DNA of 61,447 nt, filler included, from Basidiobolus ranarum (lineage: Eukaryota), in NCBI GenBank assembly GCA_040143965.1. It is 4 parts of 4 records of this genome, joined end to end, with 100 filler letters (N's around TTAATTAATTAA, not from the genome) between each part and the next. Parts side by side here need not be neighbours in the genome. Positions count along the whole stretch, not along the records: positions 30,822 to 46,101 come from JASJQH010007260.1; 3 more parts are not named here. One strand, 5' to 3'. This document shows positions 3,329 through 52,328 of this stretch, piece after piece (within the stretch, counting starts at the first letter, position 1; each line of letters starts with the position of its first letter). A program made the position numbers and the translations under genes. The notes beneath the pieces are model-generated. The model worked only from the letters and a program-made list of their open reading frames with translations, had not been told where the DNA came from and ran no database searches.

Positions 3329-4715
3329 TAAAATTATTATAACAAGGCAATTGCAGGCAGAACACTGTAATGATTTATATGCAATCATAAGTAAAAACTA
3401 TGAAGTTGTTAATCGGGCCATGACAAGCAAGAATGCCATAATATTGCAATTAATTCAGCATTTGGAAGAAACTAGTTGACAGTTAGAGAGTCACTCAACA
3501 ATGATACAAGACCTTCAGAATGCTGTACTTGAGCTACTGCAACATGATGCTCCCTCCTTTGATTCTCAGATAGGATTTCAATCAATCCCACACCATACAT
3601 ATGAACATTACCATGACAATCTAGCAGAGCAGAATATGTGTTGGACCATTGAGCTGACACAACAACCCAAAATTGCTTGGGCACATGAAAAAAGAAATCT
3701 AATAGGAGAACTGGCAAACCAAAAGACTCTGAATGTCATTGCTGGTGTCACTTGCTCTGATGATGAATGGTTTAACATTTTGGAAACTGTGTGGAATCTT
3801 GCCCAAAATCACAAGCATTTGAGCCAATTGTGGAAAAACCAAAAACCAGGTGCTATTCTGAAGGTTCTTGACTTATTTCATGGGGCTTATCCTGGGTTTT
3901 TGAAAGCAAATGGCAGTTGGGCTAGTATATGCCTATTCACAAAACATCTCAAAAATGTACACAATTATCAACTTGGAAAAGGAAGAACAGTAGCTAAAGA
4001 AGTACTCAAGGAGCTGGAAGTTGGTAAACCCAACAGAAATGCAAAGGAGCCAGTGAGTTTAGGCTCTACTGTCCCACTTATCAAATTCTTCACACCATTA
4101 CAAAGATCTGTATTTCCATAGTCAGATATACTGGCAAAAAAGCTTAATTTCACCATGACACCAGGTACACCTGTTGGAAGAGTGCTAAATTTGGAAGTTT
4201 ATCCTATACCTGGAACCTCTCAAAAAGCAAAAACACCAGCAAATAAAGATCACAGCTCTCCAACCTCAACTGATACTTTGCAAAGTGTTGAAATAAGCCC
4301 CAAAGTTAAAGGGAAGCAAAAAGCTGCACAAACACCACATAGCACCCTCAGTAGTGTCACACTACAAGGACATACAAAAATAGTCAAAGTGCTTGAGGAG
4401 TATTTTCAAAAGTATGAAGGGAAAAATGCAGTGCAAGTATGCAGAAAGTGGCTTCAAAAGAAGAACATTCAACTTGATATTCAGTCTGGTGTTGACCATG
4501 GAGATATCTGCAAAGTTCTTAGTAGAGAGTGGCACAATATTGCAGGGTATCTGCTAGATAGCTGGAAGAATGTTAGTTCAGCAATGTTAAAACAAAGGTT
4601 GGCTTTGATGGAGATATTGATACAAACTCATGTTGGGGATGAGCTAAACCTTGGGTATGAAGAACTCTATAAAAATATTCAGGAGAATATATCAAAGAGT
4701 CTAGGGATTTCATAG
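2970..4715 (+). pseudogene. Degenerate ~580-codon accessory ORF (ORF2) of the CMC element, divergent from the transposase
   Basis: ORFs 2970, 3501 and 4155 share one reading frame, broken only by isolated stop codons. It lies between the Tnp2 start and the putative terminus at 4979. No recognisable domain. Confidence 0.65.
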
Positions 4716-36102: not shown

Positions 36103-39100
36103 ATGAACCGATTATTCGAATCTAGTTGCGGTAACTTTCTTACCAGTAAAAATGGTAGAGGACTCTCTTCAGATATTTCACGATTCTCTCCTGGTGAGTG
36201 GGTCGAAATTAAAGACCCACAAAGTACCGAGATATATTATGCTAATCCAGTAAGTGTCCCTGTAACTACTATGGCGGATTCTGACGAGATTGTGCTTATC
36301 CAACTAATATTTAACCTTTTTATTGTTAGCTTACTGGGGAGTGTGCTAATAAAATCCCTTTGAATGCTAAAATGTAAGAATATTTTTATTTCAATGCCAC
36401 TTTTATGAATCTAGAGCTTCCGTTAACTCATCTGTTTCTTATAGACATCCCAGTGATCCCAACGGAGAGTGGTGGGAGCTTTATGACGAGCAGAACGATC
36501 TAAACTATTATTATAATACACTTACGAGCCAGACTGAATGGATTAGACCAGATACGGGGCTTATTGTGCCTTTGGCAACAATTCAAGTATACACATTGTT
36601 ACAATTTTTGTACAAAGTAATACATAGTACTAAGGTCATTCATTTTGATCTGGATAGAATACCGCGATGGGACGTAGAGTTTCGATGGTATTAGCAAATA
36701 GAGGCTCATTAATCTTAGCAACAAATGGAATCAAGCCTCCGGAGTCTGAAGGCGAGAAGAAACCTGGGAGCTCAGCTTTTTTATTAGGCAATAATAACAA
36801 CCAAAATAATTCTAACATCGATGAGCTTACGGAAGCAACACCGCCCCTATTAAGAGCATCACAGGTTGGTTTTTAATGTTTCAACTGTCTCTGTCCGTCA
36901 TTGTTTTCTTTTCTTAAACTTGTATAATAGTCCGCTGCACCTGAATCATCAAATCTGAAGAGGCAGGATAGCCGCTGGTCAGTCTCTGCAGGTATTACTG
37001 AAACTTCTGACAAAGATATCCAGAGTTTCAGTGAGACTTCGTCCAAGATTTTGGAGTGCCCGATGATTCCTCTCGAATCTCGGGAGGAGATCCCCCAAGG
37101 GCCATCCAGCTCAGGTATTCATTTATCTCTGTATAACATGTTGTATGAATATCTCCTTATTTTGAAACTACATCCAGCCATTTCCAATTTCACTCCACAA
37201 ATTAACAACAACGATGCTCCCCTCCCTCCTGCTGGGAAAGAACGAGCCTCTGCGTCTTCTGTTAAGAATGATAATTATATGTAAGAGTTGCTGTTATGGT
37301 GCTGATCTTATGGAGTGCTTACCGCGACTATATCTTCTTCTTTAGTCCTCCTACTCTCCCACCACAACTTTTAGAGGAGATGAATCAATTTCAAATCGAT
37401 GGATTTTCTCCAAAGTACTTTGCTGTGCATAAAAAAGGAATTTTCAGAAGAAAGGTGTCCATGGAGAAACTTTTACAATGGTCCAAGGTAACGGTAATAT
37501 TCAAATGACGGATTATGGATAGTTATTTATCAGAAGTGAGGTGTTTTGATTAATTTGTAAATAGGACTCTCTAAAGCAACCTTTATTGATCTTGAGCAAA
37601 CCGGTTCAAAAAGACGCGTTAAAGTGCTTTAAAAATATCCTTTTAAGACGAATTTGGACTTATTTTATGACTTTGATTCCATTATTCCTTAACTCTTTTT
37701 TACTCATTCAGAAGATTATGGGAGATCGAGCTTACATACTAGGTTCTTCTCTCAATAAAGACACTCAGTGGTTGCTTGATAGAGGCATAGTGGAGGGTGA
37801 ATTGAGAGATGAAATTTACGTTCAGCTATGTAAGCAGTTAACACATAATCCTAGTAGGTAAGACAAAGCTCAAGTAATTCTAAATTATTTCCAAGTATTT
37901 GATAATCGGTAGTAACCTCTCTCTATAACAGCCAAAGCCTTTTCAATGGATGGCAACTCATGTGTGTACTAGCAGTTACATTTCCTCCATCACGAAATTT
38001 CGAAAAGTACATGCAAAACTTTGTCAAGGCACATTTTGATATTCAACAAAGCAAAATCAATATACTTTCCAAGCATGCTCACAACAAATTACTAAGAATC
38101 TCCAAAAGTGGGCCTCGTGGAAAAGTCCTCACTAATGAAGAGATCGAACAAGCCAAAGTAAGTATCCTGAGAAATCCAATTTATCTTGTTTGATTTAACC
38201 CAAACTATCATCTTACAGGAATCTGCTTTTCATCCTACTGTGTTTGGAGAGTCTTTGGAGTATGTGATGCAAATGCAGGCTCAGACGCATCCAAGCTTAC
38301 CATTGCCTAGGATTCTACTGTTCCTGGCGGAAAGTGTATTGAAGTTGGATGGTCAAAAGTCTGAAGGTATTTTTCGTCTTTCTGGTGACCCTGAGGCCGT
38401 AACTTCACTGGTAACATCCAAAGCGTTTGATCTCCGTTTTATAAGCTCTCTAACCTCAGTATATTTATTTAGCGGTTGAAAATTGAGAAAAGTAAGTATT
38501 CTAATGCACATTTGACTCACTTGGTTTGTAACCATGCCTAAGATTTGCTTAGATCAATACGATATTCAAGGGATCACTGATCCAAATGTACCCTCTTCTC
38601 TGCTGAAGTTTTGGCTTCGTGATCTAGCAGAGCCTTTGATCCCTGCGAAGTATTAATATCCTTTTTCATACGAGCTTCAGTTATTCATCATCAATCCAAT
38701 ATGCTGCCCTATTAACCCTTAACTGAGGCTTACCGATATGTGTATTCAAAGCGCAGAGAATCCCCAAGAGTCGGTGGAGATCATTGAAAAGCTTCCAGAT
38801 ATCAACCGGATTGTCGTTCATTTTACGCTATATTTTCTACAGGTATAGTTATCATTCGGTCATGATAAACCTGTCAACCACTAAATATCTTTTGATTAGT
38901 TGTTCACTACAAAAGAGGCTATGCTTCATACAAAAATGACGGTAGCGAACTTGGCCATGGTATTTGCACCCAATTTTCTAAGATGTCCAAGTGAGAACTT
39001 GAACGAAATCTTTGAAAAAACTCGACATGAACAAGCGTTTGTTAAAACTTTACTAGCACATATGAAACCTATATCTTCCATTACATTAAAATCCATTTTT

Positions 39101-39103
39101 TAA
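36103..39103 (+). CDS. WW-WW-MyTH4-RhoGAP protein (ARHGAP39/Vilse-like), many exons, two AT-AC introns
   Basis: WW: EWVEIKDP..YYANP and EWWELYD..YYYN..TEWIRP. MyTH4: ELRDEIYVQLCKQLTHNP, GWQLM..TFPPS. RhoGAP: EGIFRLSG, LLKFWLRDLAEPLIP, KMTVANLAMVFAPNFLR. Confidence 0.92.
37635..37703 (+). other. U12-type AT-AC intron (69 nt)
   Basis: 5' ATATCCTTTT, branch TTCCTTAAC (37685-37693), 3' AC. Removal gives KCFKIIQKIMGDR. Confidence 0.93.
38656..38733 (+). other. U12-type AT-AC intron (78 nt)
   Basis: 5' ATATCCTTTT, branch ACCCTTAAC (38715-38723), 3' AC. Removal gives EPLIPAKYYDMCI. Confidence 0.93.
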
Positions 39104-48648: not shown

Positions 48649-50187
48649 ATGAGTAGAGACCGTCTAGCAGGTTTAAAGGTAAAAACCTTCACCGAACTTG
48701 ACTGCCTTTGTTTGACTAACATATCTATTAAAGAGCGGATACGCAAACCTAGAAGACCCTGGAGCCTTAGAGCTAGGCAGTATTCAACACGGTGACAATA
48801 CCGCCTCTCTTAATACTTTTCTCGAAGAGGCAAGCTAATATTCTCTTTCACTTTGAGTGATATATAAAGCTAATTTTCATATACTGGGTACAGGTAACAG
48901 AAATAGAAGACGTTATCGCACTTTTTCAACAAAATGTGAAAAAGATTCAAGACCTTCATGCTAATGTACTGGATGCATTTAGTGAGGAGCAAACAAGTGG
49001 TGACTTAATTTGCATCTGTTTACTCTTTCTATCGTATCTTCCTAATACAAGATATCTGGTGATTTCTAGCCATTAGTAAACAGACGGATAAGCTAGTATC
49101 TGAAACATTTCAACTGGGAAATAATGTAAAGGAGCGTTTAAAAGGTGTTGTTTTAATTCACATTTTTATTTAGTTAAGAGGACCTAACCTACTTGAGCTG
49201 GTCTATTCTTCTTCTTATTAGGAGCTCTTCTAACCACTTTTCTTTAGCCATGAATTTAGCCAACAGAAAAGCGACGGGCGGACCAGGACAAGCTCAAATA
49301 AGGAGAAATAAGGTATACTATTACCCATGGTGAATATTTTCTATATTGAATTGAATCCAACATTTCACACGTCCTTTCAGTATCAAGCTTTACAAGAAAA
49401 ATTCATAGAAGCCATCAAGAAGTATCAAACAGTTGAGTATGAGTCTCGATCTCGATATAGGGAAAGAGTGGAGAGACAATATCGTATTGGTAGGTTATTC
49501 TTTAATTTGATGGCGGGGTATTTCCGATTGTGAAATCCTCATGTTATCTGGACACCACTCTCATGAATTTTTACAGTTAAACCGGATGCCTCTGAAGAAG
49601 AGATAGATAATGTTTTGGATGAAGATGGTGGAAATCAACTTTTTGCTCAAGCAGTGAGTTGTCTTAATAACACATACACTATGTGCTCCAGTTACTGATA
49701 TAATCATAGTTAATGTCCACCTCAAAGTCTTCCGAAGCTCGTGAGGTTTTAAGGGAAGTTCAGAGTAGACACGATGACATTAAAAAGATCGAAAAAAGCA
49801 TTGTGGTATGGCATTAATTTGAAGCAAAATTCTCTTTTTAAATACTGACTTGCACTTTATTTTCAACCTTAGGAACTTGCACGTTTATTTGAAGAAATGC
49901 AAACTCTAATCACACTTCAAGACGAGATGATACATCAAATAGATGATCATATGGAAACAACAGTGACCCATGGCTTTGAAGCTAACAAGCAGATGGACCA
50001 GGCCATTGTATATGCAGAGGCTAGTAGAAAGGTTAGAAATAGGTTCATTTTTTGATTTCATCCACAATCGCTTCTCACCTCTCTAATTATCTAGAAAAAG
50101 TGGTGCCTGCTTATATTTTTCATATTGCTAATTATAGTTATTGCACTTGTTGTTTACTTCACTCAGTTTCGTAAACCCACAAAATAA
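48649..50187 (+). CDS. Plasma-membrane syntaxin (Sso1/2-type Qa-SNARE), paralog 1
   Basis: MSRDRLAGLK N-peptide; RQYRIVKPDASEEEID; EVQSRHDDIKKIEKSIV|ELARLFEEM..LQDEMI; C-terminal TM. Includes a GC-AG intron at 48830-48893. Confidence 0.92.
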
Positions 50188-50882: not shown

Positions 50883-52328
50883 ATGGTAAAGTAACTTCAT
50901 TCATGATACATTCAATATCTCGTAGAATCTCTACATTTCTTACACCTTTCTATTCCAGTATGGAACCAATCGTAACGGCAAAGAGGTCCCAGCTGATGCT
51001 TTTTGGGATGAGGTAAATTCATGGTATAACTGCTTGATACCTGGAAGGGATTCCCTTATCAATTAATTTGCTCGTCGATTTAGTATTCAAGACTTGATAC
51101 GACCATTCAGATGATAGAGAATCATGTGAAAAGCATCGAGGGAATCCGTTCACAGATGTTGGAGACACTCTCCGAAGCTGAACAAACTCGTATCCTTTTT
51201 TATTAAGCTAGGAATATAAGCCTAAATTAAGAAATCTCTTCTCTTTAACTCAACCATGTTTAGAATACTCGAAAAGGTTGAATATTTTGGTGACAGAAAC
51301 CTCACAAATGATGATGAACGTGAGAAGTAGAATTCAAGGTAGTTCATTAGGTATTCCAAAATGTTGAGCTGAACACTGAGTGACACATTTCGCTTGTATT
51401 ATTTAGCAATAGAAGAACTTACCAGGGATCCATCTACCGCTCCAGCTAATTCGAAAGCGTTCCGTAACCGCGTAAGCAGTATATTTATCTCTTGTTCCAT
51501 CTTATCCTCTAATTAACACGTATCTCTTTCTTTGCTGTAGCTTTTGGGACTTCGCGAGAAACTAAAAAATGCATTACTAGAGTATCAGAGGATACAACAC
51601 AAATACGATGAAGAACATAAAGAAACCATTGTTAGACAGTATGAGATTGGTAAAGAGTACTATTGAATTATCAAACCAAACCAATCGCAACTGAATGATT
51701 TTCCCCCTTAGTTAACCCAAATGCCACCCCGGAAGAAATCGATACCATGCTAAATGATTCAGACTATCAGCAAGTTTTCGCACAAGCGGTAAATGACAAG
51801 TTCAGCTAATTATATAGATATACAGACTTCCTCATCAGAATCTTTCGTAGGTTCTTCAGAGTAACCGTAAGGATCATGCAATTCGTGTATTGGAGGCTGT
51901 ACAAAGTAGAGATAAAGATATTCAAAAGATTCATGACAGTGTTCTGGTAGGATGACAATTGCTATGAGTTCGAATAGTGCTCGGATTCTGACCTCTCCCT
52001 TTGATCAAATAATATAGGAACTGGCTCAACTATTTCAACAAATTGATCTAATGATTGAAAACCAAGGAACTGTCATCGTAGATATTGAAAACACAACCGA
52101 ACAAGTGGTAGAACACCAAGTAGAAAGTCAGAAAGTCCTGGACCAAACTGAAGGAATATTAAAGAAGATCCGACAGGTACGCTACTCATATCTGAAAGTA
52201 AATGCGTGCATGTAGCTAACTTTTCTTCCAAGAAAAAACTGATCCTGTTGAGCGTCGCCTTAATCATCGTCATATTGGTCATTGTGACGGTGGTCCTCCT
52301 CACTAGGCCAAACACTGCTAGTTCATGA
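50883..52328 (+). CDS. Syntaxin (Sso-type) paralog 2, divergent, with one U12 GT-AG intron
   Basis: First coding exon is apparently ATG only. RQYEIVNPNATPEEID; VQSRDKDIQKIHDSVL|ELAQLF..ENQG; TM anchor. Intron positions match paralog 1. Confidence 0.88.
51190..51263 (+). other. U12-type GT-AG intron (74 nt)
   Basis: 5' GTATCCTTTT, branch CTCTTTAAC about 15 nt before TAG. Removal gives SEAEQTQYSKRL. Confidence 0.88.

Follow-up and report, generated by a model that had tools for sequence, protein, structure and literature searches.

A 69-nt segment of a Rho-GAP gene of Basidiobolus ranarum (37635-37703) raises the question of whether it is coding sequence or an intron, which spliceosome would remove it, and whether its in-frame, stop-free state has any regulatory meaning. 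The locus was examined in the window, i.e., the whole 61,447-nt stretch of DNA analyzed here (264 N, 37.8% G+C). We regard 37635-37703 as very probably a constitutively removed U12-type AT-AC intron, which would be intron 8 of the B. ranarum ARHGAP39-like gene. The sequence comparisons on which this assignment is built are described below.

The Rho-GAP gene and its public annotation

The gene was modeled by mapping the public protein P0001 onto the window and then extending the model by coordinates to 15 exons, as follows.

36103..39103, + strand: WW-WW-MyTH4-RhoGAP (ARHGAP39-like) gene, 15 exons, 14 introns, 681 aa
36103-36249, 36330-36373, 36445-36586, 36658-36864, 36931-37114, 37178-37280, 37346-37487, 37565-37634, + strand: exons 1-8
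37704-37857, 37932-38157, 38219-38410, 38473-38491, 38553-38655, 38734-38842, 38900-39103, + strand: exons 9-15

Mapping of P0001 was exact and unique and gave ten exons, with an eighth intron at 37635-37703 that has AT-AC ends. The 681-aa spliced model was identical to P0257, which is KAK9711722.1 of Basidiobolus ranarum, so that the public annotation already has the junction 37634/37704. It was also colinear with P0002 of B. meristosporus, sharing 515 of 681 residues (76%) and showing a gap at no junction. A search with the read-through ORF returned 106 matches, the best of which was P0001 (K7432_007622, 'hypothetical protein', Basidiobolus ranarum, 484 aa), followed by P0002 and then by a wide range of early-diverging fungi. 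Pfam detected MyTH4 (1.7e-16), RhoGAP (3.2e-05) and, weakly, WW (0.0085) on the exon ORFs; PF00397, PF00784 and PF00620 were precomputed for the orthologs, and the PDB matches of the spliced protein were MyTH4-FERM myosins and RhoGAPs. The gene at 36103..39103 encodes WW, MyTH4 and RhoGAP in the order of ARHGAP39-like proteins, and the UniRef name of KAK9711722.1 is 'Rho GTPase-activating protein 39'.

Two public isoforms constitute the K7432_007622 cluster, KAK9711723.1 (484 aa) and KAK9711722.1 (681 aa). Their sole difference is that the shorter one reads into the GT-AG intron at 38158-38218 (+), where it stops at 38193 and loses the RhoGAP domain. The presence of two isoforms per gene suggests that the public annotation is transcript-based. 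The first-pass annotation had expected gene predictors based on GT-AG introns to mis-model the AT-AC intron, which did not turn out to be so: all three U12-like junctions of the window, this one included, are in the public annotation. P0001, P0003 and P0107 were considered as predictor failures at U12 introns and were rejected, each being the shorter of two annotated isoforms.

Splice signals of intron 8 and of other introns in the window

The signals of intron 8 were read directly from the sequence, and the donor, the branch point, its 10-nt spacing and the terminal AC were all as the first-pass annotation had described them.

37635..37703, + strand: intron 8, predicted AT-AC U12-type, 69 nt, phase 1, 3n, 0 in-frame stops
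37635..37644, + strand: 5' splice site of intron 8, ATATCCTTTT
37685..37693, + strand: branch-point box of intron 8, TTCCTTAAC
37702..37703, + strand: terminal AC of intron 8

U12-type introns have recognizable consensus motifs at the donor and at the branch box, and the donor of intron 8 agrees with the consensus /ATATCCTT at 8/8 positions. The branch box is of the canonical TCCTTAAC-like form and lies within the expected ~10-15 nt of the 3' splice site; for TTCCTTAAC, the distance to the last base of the intron is 11 nt from the last A (37692) and 10 nt from the end of the motif. Joining 37634^37704 gives ...ALKCFK-I-IQKIMGDR, the same join as in P0001 and P0257, which bears out the proposal that splicing restores FKIIQKIMGDR. 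Translation in frame likewise verified that the 69 nt contain no stop and that the ORF reads through them. Following the mechanism of this intron class, U11 and then U6atac would pair with the ATATCCTT 5' splice site, while the TTCCTTAAC branch box, at 11 nt from the intron end, would pair with U12. The exon ends 37634 and 37704 would then be joined, so that the split codon a|tc would give Ile347 and one continuous MyTH4 helix would be restored (...ALKCFK-I-IQKIMGD...).

Such a combination of signals is rarely generated by chance. A composite pattern of ATATCCTT, 30-60 nt, CCTTAAC, 5-12 nt and AC had two matches in the 61,447-base window, each of them in the Rho-GAP gene and on its coding strand, and 0 of 100 dinucleotide-preserving shuffles contained any match. 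A looser composite was observed 2 times against 0.077 expected per window (Markov-1, 300 simulations). The donor octamer by itself is common (8 observed, 5.9 expected). The sole nearby GT...AG pair, GT 37623 to AG 37711, was rejected as an alternative junction, as it removes 89 nt, shifts the frame and deletes invariant residues; the local sequence around intron 8 offers no in-frame GT-AG alternative.

Removal of this AT-AC intron by the major (U2-type) spliceosome would have a precedent in the rare U2-type AT-AC introns that exist, but the U12-type signature is present, with a ATATCCTT donor and a TTCCTTAAC box at 11 nt from the intron end. Furthermore, the twelve remaining introns of the gene are GT-AG introns of 57-80 nt with major-type donors (GTAAGT, GTATNN, GTAACN or GTTGGT), and none of them has the ATATCCTT donor. 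We consider U2-type removal exceedingly improbable. Rfam gave 0 matches at gathering thresholds within the 61-kb window, a result that carries no information on the minor snRNA genes of the organism.

The same gene carries a second predicted AT-AC intron.

38656..38733, + strand: intron 13, predicted second AT-AC U12-type, 78 nt, phase 2, donor ATATCCTTTTT
38716-38723, + strand: branch box of intron 13, CCCTTAAC, last A 11 nt from the 3' end

Its junction PAKY-Y-DMCIQ is that of P0257 and is colinear with P0002, and its retention would place a TAA right at the junction.

The donor pattern [AG]TATCCT[TC] occurs at 13 sites in the window, of which six were inspected in addition to the two AT-AC donors. 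Four of these (+18451, -47776, -40797 and -2333) were rejected for lacking any branch-like box within 260 nt; -21570 was rejected with only a weak box, 211 nt away. The sixth, +51190, was kept and belongs to a different gene, which lies 12 kb downstream of the Rho-GAP gene in window coordinates.

51190..51263, + strand: U12-like GT-AG intron of a syntaxin (t-SNARE) gene, 74 nt, phase 1, donor GTATCCTTTTTT

Its junction is that of the public 279-aa isoform P0259 (KAK9711713.1). Of 20 syntaxin representatives chosen from 150 listed, 12 are colinear with the spliced length (<=10 residues either side). CTTTAAC occupies 51243-51249, at a distance of 15 nt from the AG. As the ordinary introns of the Rho-GAP gene have TTAAC-like branch sites too, the donor motif is the sole basis on which this intron is called U12-like. 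Intron 8, intron 13 and the syntaxin intron are all in phase 1 or 2, the phases typical of minor introns in the portions of the published accounts drawn on here. The shorter syntaxin isoform, KAK9711714.1, starts at a Met just downstream of the intron. About 2 kb upstream of the syntaxin gene, 49390-49656 (+) is a diverged syntaxin-like coding stretch with 28% identity to P0107 over 89 columns, which may be a tandem paralog.

Relatives, protein structure and the two intron sites

The open reading frame passes straight through the 69 nt, as a coding, lineage-specific insertion of 23 residues without any intron would have it. We aligned 28 relatives, hand-picked among the 106 search matches, across this site, as the first-pass annotation had proposed. 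The 23 residues were absent in 16/16 and 13/13 relatives of two alignments, which make up 28 distinct sequences with P0001 in both. These include two B. ranarum paralogs, B. meristosporus, Glomeromycotina, Mucoromycotina and Mortierellomycotina, and also cover chytrids, Blastocladiomycota, Rozella and one basidiomycete. Solved MyTH4-FERM chains, e.g., 5ejr_A (residues 39-166), aligned with residues 316-442 of P0257 without a gap across Lys346/Ile347. The AlphaFold2 model of P0002, built from a 32-sequence alignment with a mean pLDDT of 70.8, placed the corresponding junction K327|I328 inside helix 316-333, in a block (321-330) with a pLDDT of 91. The location within MyTH4 stated by the first-pass annotation hence stands for the structural domain and not for the Pfam model, as PF00784 begins ~40 residues downstream of the junction.

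The indirect evidence on the borders of removal is thus consistent across the public CDS, which leaves out the 69 nt, the 28/28 relatives and the gap-free alignment to the solved MyTH4 domains, and the AT-AC U12 intron was affirmed with the very junction first proposed. Against a coding insertion stand, in addition, splice signals that are perfect and never arose in shuffles, and the conserved helix that it would interrupt, which makes this explanation barely credible. Two metagenome-derived relatives, P0025 and P0028, were uninterrupted at the intron 8 position; they carry an extra in-frame stretch after ...NNPNK, at the position of intron 9 of the window gene, resembling an intron left in by prokaryote-style gene calling.

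The history of the predicted U12-type introns was examined by scanning metagenome contigs, which gave 54 loci; the positions of introns 8 and 13 are referred to as site 1 and site 2, respectively. Site 1 was continuous in nine loci by motif (L001, L002, L005, L007, L011, L012, L015, L017 and L025) and in further loci by tblastn, e.g., L003, L004, L008, L009, L010 and L016. L007, L011, L017, L025, L008 and L009 look genomic because of stops or an intron just upstream, and cDNA and genomic DNA are indistinguishable for the remaining loci continuous at site 1. Intron 8 is not broadly conserved, because site 1 is intron-free in most other relatives. Site 2 was continuous in 16 loci.

Three loci were interrupted exactly at site 1, namely L023, L035 and L037. 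At 99.97% over 3342 nt, L023 and L035 represent one and the same sequence; the identity between L037 and L023 is 95.8%. The best matches of L023 among the proteins compared were Catenaria, Rozella and Entomophthora orthologs, at ~40% identity. At site 1, L023 has a 52-nt U2-type GTGAGG...AG intron (2350-2401) after the first base of the same codon, matching intron 8 in position and phase. At site 2, it has a 77-nt U12-type GT-AG intron (3364-3440), whose donor is GTATCCTTT and whose CCCTTAAC box lies 13 nt from the AG; this intron matches intron 13 in codon and phase. Conversion of U12-type into U2-type introns is a known process, and the U2-type intron at site 1 of L023 fits such a conversion or an independent history. 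Compared between these two lineages, site 2 would appear to be an old U12-type intron that switched subtype. The intron at site 1 may likewise be old, with conversion in one lineage and loss in others, unless its history was more complicated. In L006, a Glomeromycotina-like contig, ...DLINQPLMVLN jumps to ...DSIKKGWELLSV (1720-1830), apparently skipping the exon that encodes IMGDR and RDEIYVQ; possible explanations are a deletion, a pseudogene and a misassembly.

In-frame retention of intron 8

If intron 8 alone were retained, the protein would gain 23 residues (NILLRRIWTYFMTLIPLFLNSFL), the junction Ile being replaced, and no stop would arise. The first-pass annotation was right on this hydrophobic insert, and it further suggested a regulatory isoform; the corresponding reading is that a real intron 8 undergoes regulated retention, yielding a protein of 704 aa whose MyTH4 domain contains the insert. 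As the 69 nt are 3n and stop-free, retaining them makes no premature stop, and retention is in general higher for minor than for major introns. Retention of minor introns has been measured in Rhizophagus, according to the portion of the literature used here. A related case is the paralog K7432_002844, whose 562-aa isoform P0003 is identical to the start of the 666-aa form and terminates with ...PAEF at site 2. This end suggests that retention of an intron at a U12 position is seen in transcripts; the K7432_002844 comparison (P0003 / P0258) is at the protein level and concerns the stop-creating site 2, the in-frame site 1 not being involved.

The reading frame is, however, far from a distinctive property of intron 8. 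Among the 14 introns of the gene, 5 are 3n and 2 are also stop-free, the other one being an ordinary GT-AG intron.

37115-37177, + strand: intron 5, ordinary GT-AG, 63 nt, 3n, stop-free in frame

The ORF track hence reads through intron 5 too, and the proposal of a regulatory isoform lost ground on this shared property. When the interior of intron 8 was shuffled, it was stop-free in 32% of 20,000 trials, which multiplied by 1/3 for length gives ~0.1. The hydrophobic nature of the peptide follows from the T-rich intron. Moreover, the insert would split the confidently predicted helix of the P0002 model as well as the gap-free MyTH4 match, and limiting minor splicing would also retain intron 13, bringing in TAA at once. 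No insert-bearing protein was found among the matches of the insert-containing query, and no retained form is annotated for this gene, whose cluster holds the 484-aa and 681-aa forms only. We therefore judge regulated retention to be unsupported and very unlikely. A narrower version, in which selection keeps intron 8 3n and stop-free, and a drop in minor splicing yields the 704-aa form in transcripts still splicing intron 13, would be slightly less likely still. If it were true, the 23-residue insert would disable or retarget the MyTH4 module, giving an early-diverging fungus a Rho-GAP switch controlled by minor splicing. That intron 8 is in frame and free of stops is most probably a coincidence.

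Comparison with known minor introns

The genus Basidiobolus is already known to be rich in minor introns. In the portions of the papers considered here, B. meristosporus was reported to have 249 minor introns, or 0.554%, the highest in fungi (Larue & Roy 2023, PMC10639083), or 237 minor introns (Olthof et al. 2024, PMC11347168). The former, within the same portions, describes Ascomycota and Basidiomycota as lacking convincing minor introns (PMC10639083). U11, U12 and U6atac genes are also reported there in several mucoromycote and zoopagomycote fungi, as is a divergent U4atac candidate in B. meristosporus (PMC10639083, PMC11347168), again as far as these portions extend. A working minor spliceosome in B. 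ranarum is consistent with the introns predicted here. Intron 8 resembles the minor introns of B. meristosporus in genus and in intron class, and the ortholog P0002 is colinear across both junctions. It differs from the published set in that the window species is B. ranarum, which is not named in those portions (PMC10639083, PMC11347168). Intron 8 is hence of an ordinary kind already published for a genus rich in such introns, and its junction is already in GenBank.

It is a clean textbook example of the AT-AC U12 type, and its importance is mostly a matter of bookkeeping. The window holds two AT-AC introns in one gene and three U12-like introns within 15 kb, all three of which are spliced correctly in the public models. 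Its host gene has the domain order of the ARHGAP39 / Vilse family (WW-MyTH4-RhoGAP), and the window protein is a fungal member; a literature search gave no paper linking ARHGAP39 with minor introns. The canonical AT-AC U12-type introns of animals and plants were reportedly described by Hall and Padgett in 1994 and by Tarn and Steitz in 1996. The two introns of the window are similar to them in having AT-AC ends, a ATATCCTT donor and a TCCTTAAC box ~11 nt from the 3' end, in the absence of a long polypyrimidine tract, and in a phase other than 0. In contrast, they are very short (69 and 78 nt), as are the major introns of the gene (57-80 nt). The U12-type intron of L023 (3364-3440) shares with intron 13 the U12-type donor, the CCCTTAAC box, the codon and the phase, whereas it ends in GT-AG and intron 13 in AT-AC. 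The locus has modest value as an example of the known subtype switch, conversion and loss of minor introns in early-diverging fungi: site 2 is U12-type in common with a ~40%-identical relative, which has a U2-type intron at site 1, where most other relatives have none.
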